Of a stretch of DNA of 64,000 bases, positions 406 through 21,200 are shown one piece after another; position 1 is the stretch's first letter; each line of letters opens with the position of its first letter. The stretch is from Macrostomum lignano (lineage: Eukaryota). Made by a program: the position numbers and the translations under genes. The stretch covers positions 62,001 through 126,000 of the forward strand of contig NIVC01000250.1 in NCBI GenBank assembly GCA_002269645.1. Direction: 5' to 3'. The notes beneath the pieces are model-generated. The model was not told where the DNA came from, searched no databases, and saw only the letters and a list, made by a program, of their open reading frames with translations.

Positions 406-468
406 ACCCCACACTGAGAATCGCCCCCAACCCCAAACTGAGAACCGCCACACTCAGAGGTCACAAAC

Positions 469-3345
469 CTGCTCAATCCGACCATTTGGGTGCCGAGACT
501 CAGTCAACGGCATTTCTTCATCCTCGCGAACTTCCTGTTGCTGAAGCTGAAGCTGCGGTTGCTGCTGCTGCTGCTGCTGTCGTTGCGTCAACATTGGTGG
601 AGGAGGAGGAGGCGGCGGCGGTGGCGGCTGAGGCGCCTGAGGCTGCTGTTGAGGCGGCGGTGATGGCGCCGTCGGTGGAAGCGCCTGAACTGGCGCTGGC
701 GCGGCCTTCAACGCCTTGAGCTGCAGGCGCTCCTTCTCCAGATTCTGCACCCGCTGACGCAGTTCGGCTTTCTCAGCCTCCAAGCTCTCGGCCCGATCTC
801 TCAGGCGAGCCAAATTGGCGGACCAGCGCGCCTCCTTCTGCGCGCATTCGTCTCGCAGTGCGGCCAACTCCTGGCGCAGGCGTTCGGACTCTTCGCGGCC
901 CTCGCGCCCGGCGCCAGCCTTCAAAGCTTTGGCGTAGTCGTCCAGCAGGCGGCGCTCTTTGCGCAGCTTGCGCTGTTCGGCCTCGCGCTCGCGCTGCGTC
1001 GCCTCGGCTGCGGACCGGCGCTCCTCATCCAGCTTGCGGCGCTCCGCCGCCAGGCCGGCCCGCTCCGACTCCAGCTCGCGTTTCAGCTTGGACAGCTGGG
1101 GGTTTATGGTCTGCGGGTTGGGGTTTATGGCTAGTGAATTGGGAAGTTTATGGTCTGCGGGTTGGGGTTTATGGCTAGTGAATTGGGAAGTTTATGGTCT
1201 GCGGGTTGGGGTTTATGGCTAGTGAATTTGGGGGTTTATGGTCTGCGGGTTGGGGTTTATGGCTAGTGAATTGGGAGTTTATGGTCTGCGGGTTGGGGTT
1301 TATGGCTAGTGAATTGGGGTTTATGGTCTGCGGGTTGGGTTTTATGGCTAGTGAATTGGGGGGTTTATGGTCTGCGGGTTGGGGTTTATGGCTAGTGAAT
1401 TGGGAGTTTATGGTCGGCGGGTTGGGGTTATGGCTAGTGAATTGGGGAGTTTATGGTCTGCGGGTTGGGGTTTATGGCTAGTGAATTGGAGTTCATGGTT
1501 AGTAAACTTGGGGTTTGTGGTTAGTAAATTGGGGGTTAGGGGGTTTATGATTAGTAAACTCATTCTAACCTGAAATCGTTCAATTTCGGCCTCCAGCTCG
1601 CGCAGTTTCTCTCGCAGCACCGAGGTGGCCACAATGCTGTCCTGAGCAGCCGCGGTTGCCTGTTTGGCAGTTTTTGCCTGAGGAAAAATCATCAGACTGG
1701 CCGCTTCGGCGGCTGCGGCAGCGGCGGCGGCACTGGCGGCTGTCACGGCGTTGGTGGATGACGCGGGCGGCACCGGCGGCTGCTGGAAGAGCTGGCCGCC
1801 TCCTGGCAATAGGGATTGGTGGCAGCGGTGGGATCAAAAGACTCACTGGGCTCAAGAGTGGGTCTGCTACAGCAGGAGAGCTGCGGGCACCCTAACGCAA
1901 CGCCTTCAGCGAAATCGTCCCGCCAATAGCGCTGAGACAATTCTGCCCATACACACGCTCTCACAGGGTGTACAGCTGCCCTGACATTCTAATCATCGGG
2001 CATGTGCACATGCGCGCGGAATCAAACCAGGGGTCGTGGCGCGAGTCAGACGCGCTTACTATTGTACCCCTGCTCACACCCTGCCCACCATGAGCTGAAC
2101 CCTGCTCACACCCTGCCCACCATGAGCTGAACCCTGCTCACACCCTGCCCACCATGAGCTGAACCCTGCTCACACCCTGCCCACCATGAGCTGAACCCTG
2201 TTCACACCCTGCCCACCATGAGCTGAACCCACCCTACCCACCATGAGCTGAACCCACCCTACCCACCATGAGCTGAACCCTACCCACCATGAGCTGAACC
2301 CTACCCACCATGAGCTGAACCCTACCCACCATGAGCTGAACCCTACCCACCATGAGCTGAACCCTACCCACCATGAGCTGAACCCTACCCACCATGAGCT
2401 GAACCCTACCCACCATGAGCTGAACCCTACCCACCATGAGCTGAACCCTACCCACCATGAGCTGAACCCTACCCACCATGAGCTGAACCCTACCCACCAT
2501 GAGCTGAACCCTACCCACCATGAGCTAAACCCTACCCACCATGAGCTGAACCCACCCTACCCACCATGAGCTGAACCCTACCCACCATGAGCTGAACCCT
2601 ACCCACCATGAGCTGAACCCTACCCACCATGAGCTAAACCCTACCCACCATGAGCTGAACCCACCCTACCCACCATGAGCTGAACCCTACCCATTATGAG
2701 CTGAACCCTACCCACCATGAGCTGAACCCTACCCACCATGAGCTGAACCCTACCCACCATGAGCTAAACCCTACCCACCATGAGCTCCGGAAGCCGCAGC
2801 GGGCGGATCCAGCAGGCTGCAGGTTGGCGTGGCCTCGCTATCAACCGTGGCCGAATTTGCCGCAGGCGGCAGACCAGCGCCGCCGCCCCATTCTTCGCTG
2901 TCGTGAAACTCATGACGCCGAGTGCCCAGCTGTTGTTGTTGCTGCTGCTGCATCAGCTGATGCTGAGCCGAGGCCCGACCGGAGTCGCTTTGCGAAGCAG
3001 CCGACGAGTTGTGGCCGCTGAATTCGCGCATGAAATCGGCCAGACGCTCTTCGTCATCATCGGACACGCTCGGAATGTCGTGTTCGTCCGTGCCAGGATA
3101 AATCAATTGCTGCTGCTGCTGCTGCTGAGCCCGGCGCTGCTCAGACTCTCTCAACCGATTAGTCACGTGACGCTTCACCGTGGCCTTGTCTAGCAATGCC
3201 AGAGCGGAGAACTGCGACACCACCGAGTTATCTGCCGCAGCTTCGAGTAGTTCAAATTCTTCCAGATCGTCGCGCGTGTCCGAGCAGGCCGTGGGCGCCC
3301 TGGCCGGCTCGCCGTCGTCGCGATCTTCAAAGCAAGGCGGCCTCT

Positions 3346-3379
<34 letters not shown>

Positions 3380-4144
3380 TCGGTTAATCAGTTGGGTAAG
3401 CATCAATTGCTGTTGCTGCTGGTGCTGGCCCTGGAAATTTGCCGCAGTCTGAGCTCGAATTGATGTTGCTCCGCCTGCGGCAGGTCTCACAGTTGTCGTT
3501 GCTGCCGAAACTTTTGGCGGAGTCTTCGATGCGCCAACTGGAGCCGTTGAAGAGGCCACTTGTTGAGCCTGTTTCTGCTTTGCCGGCGGCTTCTTTGGGT
3601 TTCTGGCTAGGCCGCCTTTGTTGAACCGGCTGATGCCCTCGCCACGGCGCAGGAACCGGAACTTCGGCTTGGCGCCGCCGCCGCCGCCTCCCGCTGGTTG
3701 CTTCTGGCGCTGCTGCTGACCGCCACCGCCGCCGCCGCCTCCAACTTTCCCGCGACTGTTCAGCGTCTCTTCAAGGAGGTCCTCGAATGGCCGATCCGGA
3801 CAGCCGGCCAGAGGAATTTCGTCGTTGCCAACGCCGCCGTTGTGGCTGCTGCGCAGGTCCGTAGCCGACGAGGCGCTGGTGCCGCCAGCCGGCTGCAACA
3901 GGTTCTCCTTGTCAGAGTCTCGGCGAGATCCTTCGTCGAATCCATCGTCAACAGGTTCGGAGCCTTCGGCCGCGGCAACCTCGTTAATAATGCTCTTGCC
4001 GCTGACATGGTTGTCGTTGGCGTCGTATTGATCGTCGAACAGGGCCTCGTCATCGTCAGGCAGGTAGTTCAACACGACGCCAGCTCGCTGCACCCAGGAA
4101 CGGCTGCTGGGAGCGAAGCAATTGCTCTCCTGACTGCGCAGCAT
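469..4144 (-). CDS. CENPJ: Centriole assembly protein Sas-4/CPAP (centromere protein J), partial; 3' exons lie beyond the left edge
   Basis: Exons 4144..2779, 1802..1570 and 1095..469 have GT/AG ends and phases 1,0,0 that join in frame. Motifs: PFEDLLEETL and KPKFRFLRRGEGISRF (PN2-3 tubulin-binding region), LEEFELLEAAAD, long coiled coil (LREKLRELEAEIERFQ, WSANLARLR), and start of the TCP10/G-box domain (HPNGRIEQ). Start codon uncertain: frame is open to 4240 and there is an acceptor-like AG at 4203-4202. Confidence 0.88.
1096..1555. repeat. Compound ~45-bp minisatellite (ggggtttatggtctgcgggtt / ggggtttatggctagtgaatt) filling CENPJ intron 2
   Basis: Direct tandem copies are visible. The array ends exactly at the minus-strand acceptor (cag at 1098-1096). 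Confidence 0.9.
2075..2785. repeat. 21-bp minisatellite (cccaccatgagctgaacccta) with longer ~26-bp variants at the left end, CENPJ intron 1
   Basis: About 30 tandem copies. The unit spans the exon/intron junction at 2779/2778. Confidence 0.95.
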
Positions 4145-4284
4145 AGGGCGAGTCGGAGGTTCAGCAATTTGAGCAAATAAGACACTCACTGGAGCACACG
4201 CCTGCGAATAACTATAAGTGAGCTCTGCAAATAGCAGCAATGCAACCGAAGCTCGCTTGCAGCTAGGGCGGGGCTCGGGGAGGG

Positions 4285-4870
4285 GATTAGCGTTGCTAAA
4301 AGGAGATGGGGAGGGATTAGCGTGGCTAAAAGGAGATGGGGAGGGATTAGCGTGGCTAAAAGGAGATGGGGAGGGATTAGCGTGGCTAAAAGGAGATGGG
4401 GAGGGATTAGCGTGGCTAAAAGGAGATGGGGAGGGATTAGCGTGGCTAAAAGGAGATGGGGAGGGATTAGCGTGGATAAAAGGGGGTGGGAAGGGATTAG
4501 CGTGGCTAAAAGGAGATGGGGAGGGATTAGCGTGGATAAAAGGGGGTGGGAAAGGATTAGCGTGGCTAAAAGGAGATGGGGAGGGATTAGCGTGGATAAA
4601 AGGGGGTGGGAAGGGATTAGCGTGGCTAAAAGGAGATGGGGAGGGATTAGCGTGGATAAAAGGGGGTGGGAAAGGATTAGCGTGGCTAAAAGGAGATGGG
4701 GAGGGATTAGCGTGGATAAAAGGGGGTGGGAAGGGATTAGCGTGGCTAAAAGGAGATGGGGAGGGATTAGCGTGGATAAAAGGGGGTGGGAAGGGATTAG
4801 CGTAGATAAAAGGGGGTGGGAAGGGATTAGCGTGGATAAAAGGGGGTGGGGAGGGATTAGCGTGGCTAAC
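4285..4870. repeat. 30-bp minisatellite (gagggattagcgtggctaaaaggagatggg and variant) between COX5B and CENPJ
   Basis: About 19-20 tandem copies, with two variants alternating in the right half. Confidence 0.95.
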
Positions 4871-9426: not shown

Positions 9427-10358
9427 TGTTACAGGCCTTTTAACTCCCTATGAGGATCCCACTAAATGCCACCAAAAGCTATCGTAGGGCTCCGTCTCTC
9501 TATACAATTTCAACCGCTGACACCAAAAGCTGTCCCAGGGCTCTTAATTATTCCTTTTGCTAGCCTTACTAGCTGCCACCAAGCTGTTGCAGGGGTTATT
9601 CCTTTTTGTTAATATTGCTGGTTATTACTTGACCTTTACTCGTAGTGCATGTACTTCTATTGGTAGCGTATGTACTTTTACTGGTAGCGTATGTACTTTT
9701 ATTGGTAGCGTATGTACTTTTATTGATAGCGTATGTACTTTTATTGGTAGCGTATGTACTTTTATTGGCCTGAGCGGTCTCCTGGCACTAATCCTCTAAC
9801 TCTATGTATCCCCCAATTCACTCCTCTAAGGAGGGTTTCTCTCAGTCCGGGCGTTGCCGGGATCAGAGGGTCACAGCGCACTTTGCTGGGTATTCTGCCC
9901 TGAGGCGGGTTTCGCAGACTCTAAGCCTGGATTTCTCTACCCTGTGGTAGGATTTCTGCCTCCTAAAGGCAGGTTACTAGACTCCTAAGTCTAGGATTTC
10001 TCGTTCTCTGAGAACGGACTGAACTCCCAATCTTGGGGCAACTCCTAAACTACTATCCACTACTTGAAATAAGTAACACGAGCAAATACGAGCTCAAGGC
10101 TGATAGAATTTCTTCTCAACTGAGAATTGCTTATTGTTCAACGAGGAACAGACAAGAGCAAGTTGGTTTGCTAGGCTCTCAAATGGCCTCTATTTATAGT
10201 ATAATTTTTCCTGTCATTTCAAACAAAAAGTAATATAAAGAATATAGAAAATATACAAAGTATACAAAATATTCGTGTAGTAAAACAGAATAATAGCTTT
10301 TTTGAATTTATACCTTTTCTAAGAAATGTAAACTACTAAAAGAAGAAGGCCTATTGCA
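9427..10358 (-). repeat. 3' LTR (932 bp)
   Basis: Matches 15605-16445 with ~8 substitutions by eye plus a 91-bp indel. Contains a 21-bp internal tandem (ttggtagcgtatgtactttta) and a minus-strand TATAAATAG box near 10198. Confidence 0.92.
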
Positions 10359-10359
10359 A

Positions 10360-10370
10360 CTGCCTTCCCT
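10360..10370 (-). other. Polypurine tract of the LTR element
   Basis: AGGGAAGGCAG immediately upstream of the 3' LTR on the minus strand. Confidence 0.6.
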
Positions 10371-10647: not shown

Positions 10648-11375
10648 TTAGAACTCGCATGGCCTGGGCAGTTCGCGGAAAGCGGGCCAACCGAATTGGC
10701 TGAGAACCCAACGCAGCTCGATGTTGATCAGCTGCCGATGTACTTCTTGGTCGGTGCCGGCGAGCTGGCGTTGTAGCCTCTCGGCTACGTACTGCACCAC
10801 GGCTATGGCTTCGCCGTTGCGCACATGTCGTCTTAGAAGGCGCAAGAATGGCCATAACTGAGCTCGCTGCGGCAATGGCTGGTCGAGACGGACGTGTGCG
10901 ATGCGCAGCAAATACTGATGGAGGCCATGTCTTGCTCGCTCGATGGGCTCGCCACGGGTAGCCAGCAGGTGATGTACCACTTCGTTGTACCCTGGTCGTC
11001 CACCTGGCGGCGGCTGCTGCCTGGCCGGTCGTTCGCCTGGCGGCTGCTGCTGCCTGGCCGGTCGTTCGCCTGGCGGCTGCTGCTGCCTGGCCGGTCGCTG
11101 TCGCGGATCTCTCGGCGGCTCCGCTAGTTGAATGGCCCGTCGTTCGCCCTGAGCAGTGCCTCCGGCAGGCGCCACATAAACCTGGACCGGGGCGATGGCC
11201 TGTGCCTGAATGAGCGCGGCCCTTTTCTCAGGCACCTGATCGCCGTTTCGAAGTTGACGATTCGCGATTGGGGAGGCATCACGTCTCCTCTTACAACCTG
11301 GTGGATTTGGGCGCGTCGGCTGTCGTAATGGTGCCTCCTCAGTCGGCTGTTGCTGCTGTTGCTGCTGCTGCCGCT

Positions 11376-11423
<48 letters not shown>

Positions 11424-13037
11424 CCGCACGTCTCGATGTCAGCTGGGCTGCAAGAGACGGGGGCGCTAGATGCGCCCCAGCCTGCGAAGAAGGTTGATGG
11501 TGAGGCTCGCGTCAACCAGGAGTGCGTCTTGTTCGCCGGGGCGGGCCGCGAACCCTCGTGGGCAGTCGAAAAGAATGTGCTGCTCGGTGTCGCGAGCTCC
11601 GCAGTCCGGGCACACGTCGGAGTCGGACAGGCCGAGTCGGAGTCTAGTGGCGGCGGCAAGGTTGCTGCAGCCGGCGCGGAGCTGGTTGACCAGGACCTCA
11701 AATTTCCTCGGCAAGGTTGGGAGTCTTGGCCATGGCGCCTTACGGCCCCAAAGCTCGAGGTCTAGATCACGTCTTTCCCGGCAGAGGTAAGCGCTGGCTG
11801 CCATGATGGGGACACCATGGTCGCTCTGATCTGCGGTCGCCAGTCTTGCCGCCCTATCTGCGCGTTCGTTCATGGGATGCCGCAGTGAGCCGGTATCCAG
11901 GTGATGCGGATGGAGTGATCGCTACTCTGGTTCCAAATTTCGGAGACGATTCTGCTGTTGCTGCGCTGGCCCGCCATGATGTTGTAAATGGCCGCCTGGG
12001 AGTCAGTGAAGATGTCGATACATTGATGCTCTCTGGTATTCTGGATGGCAAGCAGTATGGCTTGAAGTTCCGCCTGGGTGCTGCTGCAGATGTTCCCTGC
12101 AGCGCTGGTGACGACCCGACCCCAGCATGGGGTGATGATCACCGCTGCGCTGGTGCCGTCCGATGTGCCGCCGGCGGCCGAGCCGTCAGTCCAAACGCTG
12201 ACCGGGTGGGAGCCGCGCTCCTCGAGGTACCTCAGTGCAGTATCGCTGCGGAGGCTCTGGGGCTGGCTGCGGCTGCACTGCGTAGCCAAACTGAGGTCGA
12301 AAGTGATCGCTTCGTGGGCCGTCCACGGCGGCTGGAGCTGCGGAGCGGGCTCCCTGGTGGGGCCGTTGAGCAGCCCCTGTCTGTCGAGCTCTTGGCTAAC
12401 GCGGCGCCAGCAACCACGGTGTTCTCGCTGGTAGTCGTGGAGGACGGTGACGATGTCCTTTGGGTCTCTCGGTGTTCTCTGGTGGCTCTCAAAGGCTCGA
12501 TTCTTCGAGGGGGGGGGGGCCTACGGCCGACCTGTGTGCTTTTTGTGTGCTTCTGTAATTTTTTGTGTGCTTCTTGGGGGCCTACGGCCGACCTTCAAGA
12601 GGTGCCCCTGTTCTTAACTAACGGACCGTACCACCACCGAGCTGCCGCTGCTGCTGCTGCTGCTGCTGCTGTCGCTGCTGCTGTTGTTGCTGCTGCTCAG
12701 CCGGTGGCTGGGGTTGCTCAGCCAGGGGCTGGGGTTGCTGCTCAGGCTGAGGCGCAGGGCCTGCAGGCTGACCGTTGATCTGTCCCTCTGGCTGATCCAG
12801 ATCGGCGGTGTCAATATATAATAGCTCTCTGATAAAACCGAAATCGTCCATAGCTAATCTAGTCTTAATTACGCTTGACGTGTCAAGGGCTGTGGTATAT
12901 GCTTCCTGAGGAGCCTCAGGGGTCTTGGTTTTGTATCCGAAAAACTGGACCGCATCTTTGTGCTCGCTCTCGGGGAGGGGTCTGAGCTTCACTTTTTGAC
13001 GCTTTGGTTCCGTGGGGAACTTCGATTCGACTTTCAT
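10648..13037 (-). CDS. Extra ORF (ORF3) of the LTR element, 371 aa when reconstructed, unknown family; interrupted by a nested LINE
   Basis: 13037..12641 plus 11366..10648 = 1116 nt in one frame after removing the insertion and one TSD copy. Q/P/R-rich middle and a predicted helical C-terminal ~110 aa. No signal peptide or transmembrane segment evident. Confidence 0.65.
11379..12640 (-). mobile_element. 5'-truncated RNase H-encoding LINE fragment (I/Ingi-like) nested in the LTR element
   Basis: RNase H motifs VWTDGS, SSTQAELQAI, IFTDSQ, WIPAHCGIP/NERAD (frameshift ~11870). C-terminal CPDCGARDTEQHILFDCP, (GA)n tail at 11379-11420, and 12-bp TSD gctgccgctgct (11367-11378 and 12641-12652). Confidence 0.88.
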
Positions 13038-13244: not shown

Positions 13245-13685
13245 TTACTTTCGATAGTGAGAATAGCGCCTCCGGGGAACAAAGCCTGTGGTGACTAAGC
13301 TCTCTCTCCGGGGTCTCAGATTATAGCGATGCCTTTGTTCGGCTCTTTCGTTCTCACTCCTATCTTGATTTGGTTCTGATGTGTCACCTATTTCGGCTGG
13401 CTCGGTTCTCTCACTGTCTAATGATTCATGCTCCAACTCTTCTTCATTCTGCTCAATTCCTTCCTCATTTAGCTCGTTCTGTTCGATTTCTCGTGCTCTC
13501 CATAGGATTCTCTCATCCTCTGAACTGTCGTCTAGTATTACTGGTTCTACAATGTTTTCTTTCTTTCCTAACTTCTGTTGTTGTTGCCTTCCCTTACTTT
13601 TTGGCTCTCTCTTTTTCTGTTGCTCTCGCTGCCTTCCCCTATTTGTAGGTTCCGTCTCTTTAGTTAGTGAATTAATGATTTTCAA
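13245..13685 (-). pseudogene. Remnant C-terminal tail of Gypsy pol/integrase
   Basis: Acidic low-complexity ORF ending in RYNLRPRR, a motif common at the end of Gypsy Pol. The upstream region (13700-14800) has stops in all frames checked. Confidence 0.45.
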
Positions 13686-14802: not shown

Positions 14803-15384
14803 TCATCCTTTCTCTTGAGCTCGCTGTCTGGCTTTTCTGAAGTCTATCCTACACTTGTGGCCTGCCTGTGGTCTTATTGAACCTGGCTGTCCACAGAAAA
14901 AGCAGTGGCCGGGCTTTGGTTCTGGTCGAACACCACTGAACCGGTGCCTACCCTGGAATCGCGGCTTCGGTGCCGGTTGCTGCTGCGGCTCTGACCTTTT
15001 CTCAATGCTGATCTCAGTGAATATGATTATTAGAGTGATTAAGCACTCCACTAACGCTTCCATCCCTCCTTTCTTGTCCTGTTGCTCTGTTTCGAACTGC
15101 TCAATGACCTGTCGCCTAATCTCCTGATACTGCTGATGATCTTTTCTATGGCTCATCCTTCGTTTCAGTCCTTCTGGGATATCCAGATTGGCAAAGAGGG
15201 CTTCCTTCCGCTTTTCTTCGTTAAGTCCTTGCATCCTGCATTGCTGCTCGAATGCATTGATCCACTGCCTGATATTTTTGTCAGGTGTGTACTTCTCAAC
15301 CTCTACTTGCTTCTCTGTTCCTAATCCTAGCTTCTTTGACAGCTCCTCAGCTAACCTAGCAATTGCATCGTTGGCATTAGCCAT
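14803..15384 (-). CDS. gag: Gag-like protein (193 aa) of the LTR element, truncated in the zinc knuckle
   Basis: First ORF after the PBS. Gag-like helical motif (IRQWINAFEQQCRMQGL..., YQEIRRQVIEQF). Incomplete CCHC knuckle CFFCGQPG lacks the His. Confidence 0.75.
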   Translation of the reverse strand: MANANDAIARLAEELSKKLGLGTEKQVEVEKYTPDKNIRQWINAFEQQCRMQGLNEEKRKEALFANLDIPEGLKRRMSHRKDHQQYQEIRRQVIEQFETEQQDKKGGMEALVECLITLIIIFTEISIEKRSEPQQQPAPKPRFQGRHRFSGVRPEPKPGHCFFCGQPGSIRPQAGHKCRIDFRKARQRAQEKG

Positions 15385-15424: not shown

Positions 15425-15595
15425 CTGGCTGTTTCTCTAATCTAAATCGCACCGTTTCTCTGATCTAGATCGCACCGTTTCTCTGATCTAAATCGCGCCG
15501 TTTCTCTGATCTGATTCGTGCCATTTCTCTAATCTATTCGATTCTAGCCATTTCTCCGATCTAAATCGCGCCATTTCTCTGATCCTTTACGCTGC
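15425..15595. repeat. ~23-bp tandem repeats (aaatcgcaccgtttctctgatct) in the LTR element 5'UTR
   Basis: About 7 degenerate copies between PBS and gag. Confidence 0.75.
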
Positions 15596-15600
15596 CACCA
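15590..15600 (-). promoter_or_regulatory. Primer-binding site, complementary to the 3' end of tRNA-Leu
   Basis: TGGTGGCAGCG, 4 nt downstream of the 5' LTR. Complementary to the ...CGCUGCCACCA end of eukaryotic tRNA-Leu(AAG/UAG). Confidence 0.75.
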
Positions 15601-15604
15601 AAGT

Positions 15605-16445
15605 TGTTACAGGCCTTTTAACTCCCTATGAGGATCCCACTAAATGCCACCAAAAGCTGTCGTAGGGCTCTGTCTCTCTATACAATTTCAACCGCTGACA
15701 CCAAAAGCTGTCCCAGGGCTCTTAATTATTCCTTTTGCTAGCTTTATTAGCTGCCACCAAGCTGTTGCAGGGGTTATTCCTTTTTGTTAATATTGCTGGT
15801 TATTACTTGACCTTTACTCGTAGTGCATGTACTTCTATTGGTAGCGTATGTACTTTTACTGGTAGCATATGTACTTTTATTGGTAGCGTATGTACTTTTA
15901 TTGATAGCGTATGTACTTTTATTGGTAGCGTATGTACTTTTATTGGCCTGAGCGGTCTCCTGGCACTAATCCTCTAACTCTATGTATCCCCCAATTCACT
16001 CCTCTAAGGAGGGTTTCTCTCAGTCTGGGCGTTGCCGGGATCAGAGGGTCACAGCGCACTTTGCTGGGTATTCTGCCCTGAGGCGGGTTTCGCAGACTCT
16101 AAGCCTGGATTTCTCTACCCTGTGGTAGGATTTCTGCCTCCTAAAGGCGGGTTACTAGACTCCTAAGTCTAGGATTTCTCGTTCTCTGAGAACGGACTGA
16201 ACTCCCAATCTTGGGGCAACTCCTAAACTACTATCCACTACTTGAAATAAGTAACACGAGCAAATACGAGCTCAAGGCTGATAGAATTTCTTCTCAACTG
16301 AGAATTGCTTATTGTTCAATGAGGAACAGACAAGAGCAAGTTGGTTTGCTAGGCTCTCAAATGGCCTCTATTTATAGTATAATTTTTCCTGTCATTTCAA
16401 ACAAAAAGTAATATAAAAACTACTAAAAGAAGAAGGCCTATTGCA
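15605..16445 (-). repeat. 5' LTR (841 bp)
   Basis: Near-identical to 9427-10358 but lacks 91 bp near its U3 end. Confidence 0.92.
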
Positions 16446-18297
16446 TAATAAAGATATTCTAAATATGTATTGTCTAGACTGAATACTCTGTCTAAGCATA
16501 GGGCCTAAGATATATTCAAAACAATCTACACAAAAAGTTAGCAAAGTGTTAGTTTAATTTTTTTGTTTAATGATATTTTTGTTTTAAATAATAAAGAAAT
16601 AGTTTTTTTAAAAATACTTCATCCTTAGTTTCAATCAGTTTAAGAGACTTACTGAACCTCTAAATGGATTTTTTTCAAATTATGAAATATTAATATTAAC
16701 ACAATAACTAAGCCTAAACTGATCATTGATGCAAATGTTAAATTAGGCCTATAAAATGTCTATCATGTATCATTACATTATATTGAAATGATGGCACTCA
16801 TTGATAAAATGTAAATATTGGAAGTGTGTTGCCTAGTACTGTGTAAATAGTATTATGCCTAAATGATCACTACTAGTACTAGGCCTAGGCCTAACCAAAA
16901 ATTCCCATTTTTACAGTGTCATTTATTATAGAAGCAACTTGTCATAGTCATAGAAATGTCTATCACCAAAACAAATTGTCCTAAAAAAACCTGCACCATT
17001 TGTATGCTTGGCCTAAGCCAATAATATGTAAACAAAATTCAGAAATTCAAAATGCAAATTTGCAAGTTACATTATTAAAAAAACTGTGTTTTACAATAAA
17101 CTTGCCATTTGGTATAGTAAGTAGATAGGCCCCTAGCCCTATTAATTTATAACAAGCCTGGCTAGCCCAGCTTGGCCCTTATGTTCTTCTTGTATAAACC
17201 TGACTGACAGGCGTCAAAGAAAGAAACAACCTGCATGCTGCACCCTTTAGGCATAGCCTTCCTTGCCTTTTAGGCCTTTGCTTTTAGTTTTATGCCAATG
17301 CCATGGTCTAAAATACTATTAATACACTTTACCGTCCTTATTTTTAGCTGAAATGAAATACTCTAAAGAATAGCTAGATAAGGCGAATAAAAAAAATGGG
17401 GTCTTCAAATCTATTTAGTAGCACTTTACATATAGGCCTGCCTACCGGCTACCTATACTATAGCTATGAAATGCAATGCAGTCCGAAGTTTGTCAATTTG
17501 TGGCAAAATAGTTCGTGGAAACATATCTGTTAATTTTTTCAGCCATACTATGTTCGTACTTTTCAGCTAATTTACCATTTCGTTCATTTTAAAATAACCA
17601 GTGTCATAAACTACGCTTTAAATTTAAAAAAATTGTTTTACAGCTTAACTTGAATAGCTTATTTAAAATACAAATTTTACAAGAAAGTATTGCAAAATTA
17701 AGAATATAATTGTCATCATATTTCTAATTAGGAAGTAAAAAGCCGAATTTCACCTAACAGCGACACTAAGGTCAGCGCATTGTTATTGCGTCTCCATAAC
17801 TTTTATTTTTTCTAATTTTAGCAATAGACTTTACGCCAAAAATGGTGGGATAATGTTAACTGTCAAAATCCAGCTTTGTTCGAGTAAAATATCGAACGGT
17901 TTGTGACGAACCGTATTAGTTTGCCAAAAACTTCCCGAGTTTTTACAGCTATAGAAGTTAATTAAGTTTTTGTAGTTAAAAAAGAAAATTATTTAATCCA
18001 TCATAAATCTGTACCAATTTTTACTTTCGTTTTTTAATGTTACTATATTACTAAATGAATGTATTACAATTACATGACGATTTCAGACTGTCTCATTTAA
18101 AAGTATGGCACGGAAAATTGAATATTCTGGTAAGTTATTATGCCCAGAATTTCGAGTGATTAGTTAGCATGTAAATTTTCAAACAAAACAACTTTAGTTT
18201 AAACTATGTACGACCAGGGGACAACTAAAACATCCTTTAAAAAGTGTTTTAGTTGATATGTCCCTGTTATACGACTCAGCATATTGCTACTGAAAAA

Positions 18298-21200
18298 ATG
18301 CTTGTAAACTTCCTCGACTTTACAGCCCTACTATTCGCTGCCTGGTTTATCTCCTTCAGCATAGCAGTTCAACATGATTCAAGCGTTCAAAGAAGCTTCA
18401 TAATTGACTACGACAACAATACTTTTTTAAAGGATGGCCAACCATTCCAGTACATATCCGGCAGCATTCATTACTTCCGCCTGCTTCCTGACAGCTGGGA
18501 CGATCGGCTGGCCAAAATGCGAGCCGCCGGCCTGAACGCCGTGCAAATCTACGTGCCCTGGAATTTCCACATGCCCAGGCCGGGCCAGCACCGGTTCACC
18601 GGCTCGGCCGACCTCGACCTGTTCCTGGCGCTGGCGCAGAAGCACGACCTCTTGGCCATTGTGCGCGCCGGTCCGTACATCTGCGCCGAGTGGGACTTCG
18701 GCGGCCTGCCAGCCTGGCTGCTGCAGCGCAACGCCTCCATTGTGATGCGCAGCAGCGACCCGCAGTTCCTGGCCGCAGTCGACGAATGGATGGCCGTCCT
18801 GCTGCCCATCATCGCCAGGCGCCTGTACTCCAGCGGCGGCAATGTGATCATGGTGCAGCTTGAGAATGAGTACGGTAGCACTGGTCAGTGCGACCTGGCC
18901 TACATCCGGCATCTGTACCAGCTGGGCAGGCGTTACCTAGGCAACCAGACGGTGCTGTTTAGCACCGATAACACTTTAACGTGCGTCGCCAAGGAGAGAC
19001 AGTTCTATGCTACTATAGACTTTGGCGTTGACGGAAGTAAGTCATCCGTCTCTATATGTTTCTTCGAGTATCGTCCATAGTTAGTGTTTGAAACCCATTA
19101 GTCGATTTGATCTCGGAGACTTCTATAGACTTTCCACTTGGTAGAGTCGAGGTAAGGTACATCGTTTGATAAAAGCCAGGAGAACAAAAGCAAACACGAA
19201 CATTCGCATTTTTTAAATAATACCAAATTACAATTTTATTAATCTTCGCGTGACATGTTTCGCCGAACAATCGGCATCTTCAGGCAATATTATAGATGCA
19301 GAGAGATGGTAAATTTTTAAAGTCTAGTAAGCCAAAATGATGCAAGTTTTGGTAGCAGAGTTAGATAGCCCTAAATAAGAGGCAAAGCGCATGGGGTCAG
19401 AACACCCTTAGATGGACACTCGCCCCTCTACCACCAAGTTGGATGTTCATGGTGGGCTTTAGCTGTCTAATGTACAATGCCTCAAGAGTAGACAACAAGA
19501 GTAGACGATCGATCATTTTAAATTCCACTTGCAAATTCCACTTCCACTTCCCACTTGCAAACGAAACAAGTAAATATAAGTTATAACTGTATGCCTTCTG
19601 TCTTACATGCAGTTTATGAAAGCTAAAGCTAGTATAGACATGCTACCGGAGAACGGCAAGTAAACAAAATTACCTTTCTTGTTTGGATTGGCTAGACAAA
19701 GGTCCTGTCATTAGCTCATTAAGTGGAGCCCGAGTAACCTATGTACACTAATGATACGTCATTCTGCTCACAGTGACACCAGGAAGCTGGGTTTGGCAAA
19801 AAAGCGACGAAAGTTAGACTTTGGTTAGGGGAGAATAAGCAAGGGGATAATTGGGAATATTGTATCAACTTAAGCTCAGCTCATAAAGTGGAGTCCCTAA
19901 TTATCTCCTTGCTTGTTCTCACTTATCCGAAGTCTAACTTTTGTCGCTTTTTGCCAAACCCAGCTTCCCGGTGTCACTGTGAGCAGAATGACGTATCATT
20001 TGTGTACATAGGTTACTCGGGCTCCACTTTATGAGCTAATTGACAGGCCTTTTCTTAAATCTGTCTTTTTCGTTCACGGTTCATGTAAAAAGCGAATCCC
20101 TGATAAAATTGTTTAGTAAACGCAATTCTACTTTGCGCTTGACCATCTTGAAATTAAAGTAGACCATGGTTTTTTACTTAATGTAACTTCCCGCCATGAC
20201 TCCCGCAGCCCGCTCCTTGAAGGACACGTTCGCTCCGCTACGAGCTTTACAGCCCAAGGGCCCGTTGGTGAACTCTGAGTATTACGCTGGCTGGCTGGAC
20301 CACTGGTCCAGCCCGCACGTCCGAGTTGGCGCCCAACTGGTCGCAGACGGCCTCGCCCGGATGCTGGCCTACGGTGTCAACGTCAACATCTACATGTTCT
20401 TCGGGGCACGAATTTCGGCTACTGGAACGGCGCCAACTCGCCGCCATTTGAGCCGCAGCCAACTTCGTACGACTATGACGCGCCAATAGCTGAGAATGGC
20501 GACACTCGGTGGGTGTTAGAAATGTCTGGCTAAGTACAACTCTCCCGACTGTCGTCATTGTAAAATTTCGTTGTGACGCTTAGGACTCGCTTCGCTTAGT
20601 TATAAGCAGTCACTGCATGTGTAGTAGTCCGCTAGGACGCTATATTGTCACTCATTTAAACAGATTTTGACACGATATAACTATCCTGACCAAAACAAGA
20701 TGCACCAAAACTGGCAGAAATGCTCAAGAAAGCAGTTTAAACAGTTTAATCATGTTTTAAATCAGAAATAATTGCTTCTTTGGTACTAAAAACACCATCA
20801 GATATAAGGCGTAGATTGTTTCACCTATAATTATTTCTTTCTCGTTGCGTCGAACACTTGAATCTTCGGCCGCAAACATCAAATACTTCTTGTGAAAATG
20901 TAGAAAACAAACTCGATAGTTGTGCTTCGGGTCAGTTTTTTAATTCTCCATCTGGTTCCAGTTTCGTGGAATCGCAGCAATTCACTTGTTAATAAATTCA
21001 CCATTTTCCAGCATGTCTCCTGTATGTCTCCTGTATGTCTCCTGTATGTCTCCTGTATGTCTCCTTTATGTCTACTGTATGTCTCCTTTATGTCTCCTGT
21101 ATGTCTCCTTTATGTCTACTGTATGTCTCCTGTATGTCTCCTGTATGTCTCCTGTATGTCTCCTGTATGTCTCCTTTATGTCTACTGTATGTCTCCTTTA

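Follow-up and report, generated by a model that had tools for sequence, protein, structure and literature searches.

Regulators encoded by the element itself characterize complex retroviruses; among the env-less LTR retrotransposons of animals, to our knowledge, hardly any are known, CERV being one case. Foamy-virus Tas has an acidic activation region and acts in a virus-specific manner. TR-GAG elements are pol-less elements with gag, and a 2010 study in soybean by Du and co-workers reportedly described LTR swapping of autonomous elements with non-autonomous partners. In the excerpts of the sources used here, Tas is expressed from an internal promoter (PMC12789967), and CERV is needed for the RNA output of the Cer1 element (PMC10309623). 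Extra ORFs at the env position, internal ORF3 promoters and LTR swapping are all already known separately.

The gene described here, ORF3, is the third ORF in the elements of a Ty3/gypsy clade that lacks env, found in the flatworm Macrostomum lignano. One copy lies in the window, by which we mean the whole stretch of 64,000 nucleotides that was analyzed (contig NIVC01000250.1, positions 62,001 to 126,000). In its layout the clade is like Oikopleura Tor3b/4b, which are gypsy-like with a third ORF after pol and an internal promoter (putative in the flatworm); unlike the Tor ORF3, a membrane glycoprotein (Env), the flatworm ORF3 has no transmembrane stretch (comparison with excerpts of PMC4402516). 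The non-env ORF3s of bdelloid LTR retrotransposons are likewise cargo at the env position with modular exchange, but those in the excerpts of PMC5408684 are a DEDDy exonuclease and a GDSL esterase, whereas the flatworm ORF3 matches no known family. ORF3 is almost certainly a real, selected accessory gene, and we put the probability that it acts in the nucleus to regulate how much RNA its own element produces at roughly three in four.

The window element and the architecture of ORF3

The window element is an LTR retrotransposon on the minus strand. Its LTR pair (16445-15605 and 10358-9427) is 99.0% alike over 813 nt, and a 4-bp target duplication flanks it. The hallmarks of Ty3/gypsy are present (TG...CA LTRs, target duplication, primer-binding site (PBS) and polypurine tract (PPT)). 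Complete relatives carry gag followed by pol in the order PR-RT-RH-IN; the window copy has a short gag and a pol tail only. Its features, in the direction of transcription, are as follows.

15605-16445, minus strand: 5' LTR, TG...CA, with about 90 nt of the U3 of the 3' LTR missing; TATA box at 16368-16377
15590-15600, minus strand: PBS, common to the clade
14803-15384, minus strand: short Gag, 193 aa, with a C-x2-C...H-x-C knuckle; pol-less lineage, purifying selection
13248-13661, minus strand: pol remnant, the integrase C-terminal tail (pol residues ~1380-1508 of relative L038)
12890-12960, minus strand: conserved non-coding block (12941-12956), then a TATA-like word; putative internal promoter of ORF3
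12852-13037, minus strand: 62 extra codons of the ORF as drawn in the earlier note, outside the conserved protein
12653-12851, minus strand: N-terminal part of ORF3, with the conserved ATG, an acidic amphipathic helix and a Q/P linker
11379-12640, minus strand: nested LINE fragment inside ORF3, with RNase H, a C-terminal zinc finger and an (AG)n tail
11002-11378, minus strand: middle of ORF3, with EAPLRxPTRP, basic KR clusters, the KRAALL helix, two short hydrophobic motifs and disordered linkers
10648-11001, minus strand: C-terminal five-helix domain of ORF3 (C-domain), about 115 aa
10370-10647, minus strand: T-rich 3' untranslated stretch, cassette-specific
10359-10369, minus strand: PPT
9427-10358, minus strand: 3' LTR, with a U3 of about 190 nt, a TATA box at 10190-10199 and 21-nt repeats with AATAAA at about 9632-9768

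The PBS is presumably of the tRNA-Leu type, and the U5 of each LTR holds three PBS-like words (15645-15765 and 9467-9590). The integrase tail ends in a YNLRPR word (13270-13300, minus strand), kept at the pol end in several relatives, which we take to resemble the chromatin-binding motif of foamy-virus Gag. Host exons flank the element: 454-4870 (minus strand) encodes a coiled-coil, low-complexity protein, presumably a SAS-4/CENPJ-like centriole protein, and the product of further exons at 18253-20489 (plus strand) is, we assume, glycoside-hydrolase, beta-galactosidase-like. Neither the PBS nor the promoter block occurs in the text of the six-family supplement of PMC12801592.

As the earlier note, made from the letters of the window, had proposed, two ORFs are split here by a nested LINE with a 12-bp target-site duplication. 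The LINE contains an RNase H (Pfam, E 8e-13) and is bracketed by the duplication at 11367-11378 and 12641-12652, and the halves of ORF3, aligned separately, are colinear with one unbroken 317-aa gene of the relative L031 (46/66 and 177/234 identical). The nested LINE is an internally deleted copy; its 5' end (12507-12640) holds a 65-nt piece from further inside its own ORF, with a short duplication. Because the LINE breaks ORF3, the whole protein cannot be made from the window copy.

The ORF had been read as 371 aa long with a start at 13037. The start common to relatives is the ATG at 12851, and the stretch upstream of it, which had been taken for a charged N-terminal region of about 80 aa, is open for at least 45 codons in only 4 of 14 copies. 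The Q/P linkers, the three RPARQQ repeats and the helical C-terminal domain were described correctly and are all seen in the window ORF3, the Q/P repeats being different in every subfamily and not conserved. Across 19 aligned rows the order is an acidic amphipathic helix, a variable linker, EAPLRxPTRP, a basic cluster, the KRAALL helix, two short hydrophobic motifs, a second variable linker and the C-domain; start, motifs and end are conserved across 20-78% identity. The first 22 residues have a net charge of -3 to -8 in 18 of 18 full-length rows, and the N-terminal helix carries a D/E-F/I-L-x-x-L-L pattern. Structure prediction for a full-length natural relative gave an N-terminal half that is disordered save for the acidic helix and the KRAALL helix. 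The C-domain was predicted as five helices (pLDDT 92.9, pTM 0.86), and K+R outnumber D+E in 22 of 23 rows; prediction of a C-domain dimer scored an uninformative 0.01.

No transmembrane stretch or signal peptide was found in the 19 rows, where the highest 19-residue hydropathy is 0.28-1.21 and the N terminus is acidic. Env-type features are not conserved either: furin-like words occur in 3 of the 19 rows and N-glycosylation words in 6, and there are 2-4 Cys. The statement that ORF3 is not env-like can be kept. Its hydropathy is nowhere high enough for a membrane span.

Loss of pol is older than the window copy. ORF3 had been thought to have stayed open while pol decayed, but only pol residues ~1380-1508 are present in the window and in 8 of 8 other pol-less copies tested, and this shared remnant indicates that pol was lost in the ancestor of the lineage. 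In the Gag tree, 15 RT-bearing and 13 RT-less copies are separated (100/100, one change). The short Gag is about 35% alike to complete Gag and has at least 37 near full-length matches; six unsaturated pairs, with dN/dS 0.09-0.37, show purifying selection on it. These comparisons point to an old lineage that lacks pol and has a short Gag of its own, which might help packaging or hold copy number down.

Occurrence, selection and searches for a family

The genome was searched with the C-terminal 117 residues, and 150 of 258 candidates were scored. Genome-wide, at least 150 sequences match the C-domain; leaving the window copy aside, their identity is 28-78%. Of the 150 that were scored, 107 are free of stops and 43 contain them. 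ORF3 lies just before the 3' LTR, after complete gag-pol or short gag, in most of 40 10-kb loci, a set that includes a few fragments. An independent set consisted of 14 RT matches (79-93% identity) absent from the first C-domain list. ORF3 was found after pol in 13 of these (E 3e-16 or better), three of them broken, and the remaining element holds another insertion. This fixed place agrees with the env position assigned previously.

Eleven disjoint within-cassette pairs gave 28 synonymous versus 12 non-synonymous differences (dN/dS 0.15, p 4e-9). Between the C-domains of the window and L031, dS is 2.0 and dN 0.13. Among 666 C-domain pairs, 324 are saturated at synonymous sites and 323 have dS of 1.0-2.5 with a median ratio of 0.32; no pair class showed dN/dS above 1 beyond noise. 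Selection on a function for the element had been suggested earlier, and the purifying selection found here sustains that suggestion; the argument then given for it, that the frame had stayed open next to a decayed pol, does not hold for the window copy, which is itself interrupted and comes from the pol-less lineage. The dN/dS near 1 envisaged for other copies did not appear, the ratio in the within-cassette pairs being 0.15.

A sister lineage with RT about 60% identical (L092, L097-L101, L105, L111-L117) has an ORF3 of 240-290 aa, whose C-terminal part aligned weakly with the C-domain (hhalign E 0.0017, 94 columns, probability 16%; five controls gave E 0.11 or worse over 15 columns or fewer). 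This sister clade probably has a selected accessory protein too. Two further ORF3 types lie after pol in the 60%-RT tier (L093-L096, L103, L106-L110); neither matched the C-domain (E 0.054 over 13 columns; E 0.43), and the four scanned had no Pfam match.

No family had been recognized in the window ORF, and none emerged from Pfam, PDB sequence, Foldseek or profile searches. Pfam gave no credible family for the window ORFs, 23 C-domains and 10 further ORF3s, and no DnaJ domain was matched in either window half, the 23 C-domains or the 10 further ORF3s. PDB sequences searched with two profiles gave best E values of 0.32 and 1.2. With the C-domain, Foldseek against PDB and viral structures returned nothing at E 0.001, and VIA-align against 48,161 chains reached a best Z of 6.9, with none at 8; its top chains (KaiA C-domain, B12 cap, globin-like) were set aside as generic helical bundles. 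The C-domain resembled no known DNA-binding fold in these structure searches, and no chromatin-reader or enzyme fold was among its matches. An Atlas search gave nothing above its thresholds, and word-indexed protein searches found no match beyond the query's own cluster.

Scanning 1.84 billion proteins with a profile yielded nine matches, namely five M. lignano records, one further cluster and three bacterial or fungal repeat proteins (E 3e-10 to 5e-4, 26-59 positions) that were rejected as helical-repeat noise. P0002 and P0010 are a full-architecture homologue from other assemblies, at most 44% identical to anything in this genome assembly, and by their sequences the ORF3 family exists outside this assembly. 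The scan found no non-element homologue of ORF3 except a derived LTR-free copy, so the suggestion of a captured host domain, at least by recent capture, is not supported. No description of this protein family was found in the literature that was searched. The word "ORF" is absent from the main text of PMC12801592, on LTR elements of M. lignano, as far as the excerpts of it extend. Five family gene ids are absent from the supplementary files of PMC5816591 (1), PMC5730564 (3) and PMC12801592 (5), a set that possibly leaves out large expression tables.

The ORF3 cassette, its putative promoter block and an LTR-free gene

Elements with the same backbone carry very different ORF3s. The RT cores of L033, L038, L044 and L046 are identical (dS 0.02-0.07), but their C-domains are 45-75% alike and nearly saturated at synonymous sites, and L036, L048 and L063 combine identical RT with C-domains 48-64% alike. 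DNA similarity between such elements extends from R across pol, breaks shortly ahead of the ORF3 ATG, and resumes inside R. Three sets of complete and pol-less elements have identical C-domains. On the C-domain tree the RT label, whose RT-less class includes fragments and one LTR-free gene, changes 12 times against a shuffled mean of 12.4, and at least nine changes are forced by strong branches. Pairs that are closest in the C-domain are also closest in U3 (Spearman 0.37, from 171 pairs that are not independent).

The mismatch between RT and C-domain, the similarity breakpoints and the tracking of U3 together define one moving unit, made up of ORF3, the T-rich 3' stretch (139-506 nt), the PPT, U3 and the start of R. 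Judged from these alignments, the cassette has been swapped between complete gag-pol backbones and the pol-less lineage. We infer that template switching in reverse transcription, as treated in excerpts of PMC6894440, explains the exchange. Diverged cassettes cannot recombine internally, so linkage alone could give the co-inheritance of ORF3 and U3.

A conserved block lies 90-125 nt upstream of the ORF3 ATG in 13 of 16 copies. In 6 of the 13 the next word is TATAAA or TATATA, and in the other 7, the window among these, it is degenerate; the TATA-like pattern was fitted after the alignment had been viewed. Relative to the ATG the block occurs in all three frames (5, 5 and 4 of 14 copies), which indicates that it is conserved as DNA and not as protein. 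Block and TATA-like word are probably an internal promoter of ORF3. In P0001, the database model of a relative, the start is placed upstream of the block. Contigs from two presumed-RNA runs cover parts of the element and showed no leader-ORF3 joint among the 15 of 19 joints listed, a count that is uninformative. An internal promoter is a likelier source of the ORF3 message than splicing from the 5' LTR.

The promoter reading is supported by an LTR-free gene that lacks the N-terminal half of ORF3 and retains the block and a TATA box. This gene has 118 codons and encodes the C-domain alone, without its tail. Its loci are as follows.

L066:7807-8166
L071:4042-4398
L072:4021-4377
L073:1213-1569 (these loci in the assembly: C846, C2203, C3012)

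The frame is open in 3 of 3 copies with common flanks, two of which are named database proteins, and no pol or LTR likeness was found within 6.5-10 kb around the gene. It sits on a long branch in the C-domain tree, and its variable codons (four synonymous, two non-synonymous) are too few for a selection test. The gene may be a domesticated or dominant-negative copy and is a candidate host restriction gene.

Words shared between U3s were examined in 19 elements (window U3, 10200-10358), L042, whose U3 start is wrong in this set, being left out of the shared-word comparison. Words that we take to be STAT-like occur in 11 of 19 U3s (0.1 in shuffles) and words that we take to be forkhead-like in 17 of 19 (4.3 in shuffles); their presence across U3s means that host factors may be enough. 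No heat-shock element was found in the 19 U3s, and no tandem target arrays were seen. Cassette-specific U3 repeats were also absent, the only repeats within U3 being a motif common to the clade. In 16 elements, the words common to U3 and the cognate internal-promoter region did not exceed in length those of unrelated pairs (9.9 against 9.5 ± 1.35), a comparison of exact words that misses degenerate sites.

Readings of ORF3 function and comparison with known systems

The internal promoter, the acidic helix, the basic clusters, the basic-leaning folded domain and the co-travel with U3 are best fitted by a Tas-like transcriptional activator, to which, on these sequence features, we would give somewhat less than an even chance. 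ORF3 would be made first, from its own internal promoter, and the protein would enter the nucleus by way of its basic clusters. Co-activators would be recruited by the acidic amphipathic helix, and the helical C-domain would find the target, either DNA or a host factor that sits on U3. ORF3 would then activate the LTR with which it travels and so yield more genomic RNA, as foamy-virus Tas does, and pol-less elements would keep ORF3 because it works best on their own U3. Against the activator reading stand the missing cognate word and cassette-specific repeat in the U3 comparisons, the STAT-like and forkhead-like words that the U3s have in common, and the lack of a DNA-binding fold among the structures resembling the C-domain.

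ORF3 could instead be a post-transcriptional regulator of the CERV or Rev kind, which would bind unspliced element RNA and promote its export or stability, perhaps with the T-rich 3' stretch or R as the RNA target and the acidic leucine helix as the export signal. The cassette does include the T-rich stretch (139-506 nt) and part of R, the basic clusters and leucine-rich helix fit shuttling, a pol-less element also needs RNA export, and CERV is a precedent in a Ty3/gypsy element (excerpts of PMC10309623). We nevertheless regard it as a minority candidate: an internal promoter removes the splice that would create an export problem, the first 80 nt of R hold no conserved hairpin (mean z -0.32, 18 elements), and neither Pfam nor the 1.84-billion-protein scan showed sequence likeness to CERV. 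We think it unlikely that ORF3 is an anti-silencing protein that, like VANC, counters chromatin or piRNA silencing, its ancient alleles reflecting an arms race of host and element. The many deeply diverged alleles, with saturated synonymous sites, on RT-identical backbones speak for this, as do the truncated copy, possibly kept by the host, and the precedent of VANC as sequence-specific anti-silencing proteins (excerpts of PMC10398659); yet no class of pairs has dN/dS above 1 beyond noise, U3 has no tandem target arrays and the C-domain no chromatin-reader or enzyme fold, and the reading overlaps in part with that of an activator.

That ORF3 works on the particle or elsewhere beyond the nucleus (in assembly, trafficking or env-free cell-to-cell passage), or on an unrelated host pathway, is improbable. 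ORF3 does occupy the env position, and the N-terminal helix also resembles, as we presume, LD-type docking motifs. The roles of non-env ORF3s in rotifer elements vary (excerpts of PMC5408684). Against it stand the lack of a transmembrane stretch and the conserved basic clusters, and Gag is nearly invariant where ORF3s are 45-68% alike, which argues against a particle protein, since that should track Gag. That the frame is merely open, GC-rich, low-complexity sequence without function can be practically dismissed: the linkers are of low complexity, the window copy is interrupted and 43 of 150 scored matches have stops, but dN/dS is 0.15 (p 4e-9), start, motifs and end are conserved across 20-78% identity, and the fold is predicted with confidence.

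The activator reading can be extended to a joint one, in which a new-fold activator made from an internal promoter and matched to its U3 exists as ancient, swapped alleles, and the host keeps a truncated copy, reduced to the C-domain and driven by the promoter of the element, as a dominant-negative brake. This whole combination is doubtful; if true, an env-less clade of animal retrotransposons would have evolved a circuit in the style of complex retroviruses. Dozens of ancient ORF3 alleles on almost identical gag-pol, linked to U3 and common to a pol-less lineage, are an unusual form of evolution. Transgenesis and LTR reporters exist for M. lignano (excerpts of PMC12801592). Together with the natural panel of matched and mismatched protein-promoter pairs, they make ORF3 function directly testable.

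As in soybean LTR swapping and the TR-GAG elements, LTR ends are exchanged between complete elements and an old pol-less lineage that has a gag of its own; unlike there, the exchanged unit holds a protein gene under selection, and the elements live in an animal. With VANC of VANDAL transposons ORF3 shares the character of a family-specific accessory protein that diversifies with the non-coding sequence of its element, although VANDALs are plant DNA transposons with tandem target arrays, and neither arrays nor homology were seen here (excerpts of PMC10398659). CERV of C. elegans Cer1 is, like ORF3, a novel nuclear (for ORF3, predicted) accessory protein of a Ty3/gypsy element; CERV is made from spliced RNA, no homology between the two was detected, and cassette exchange is not among the CERV features described in the excerpts of PMC10309623. 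From foamy-virus Tas (Bel1), ORF3 differs in belonging to an env-less retrotransposon, in having no sequence or fold match in Pfam, PDB and viral searches, and in that exact-word comparison found no response element common to U3 and the internal promoter. Like Tas in the excerpts of PMC12789967, it is an accessory gene that comes after pol/env and ahead of the 3' LTR, and it has an internal promoter, putative in the flatworm.
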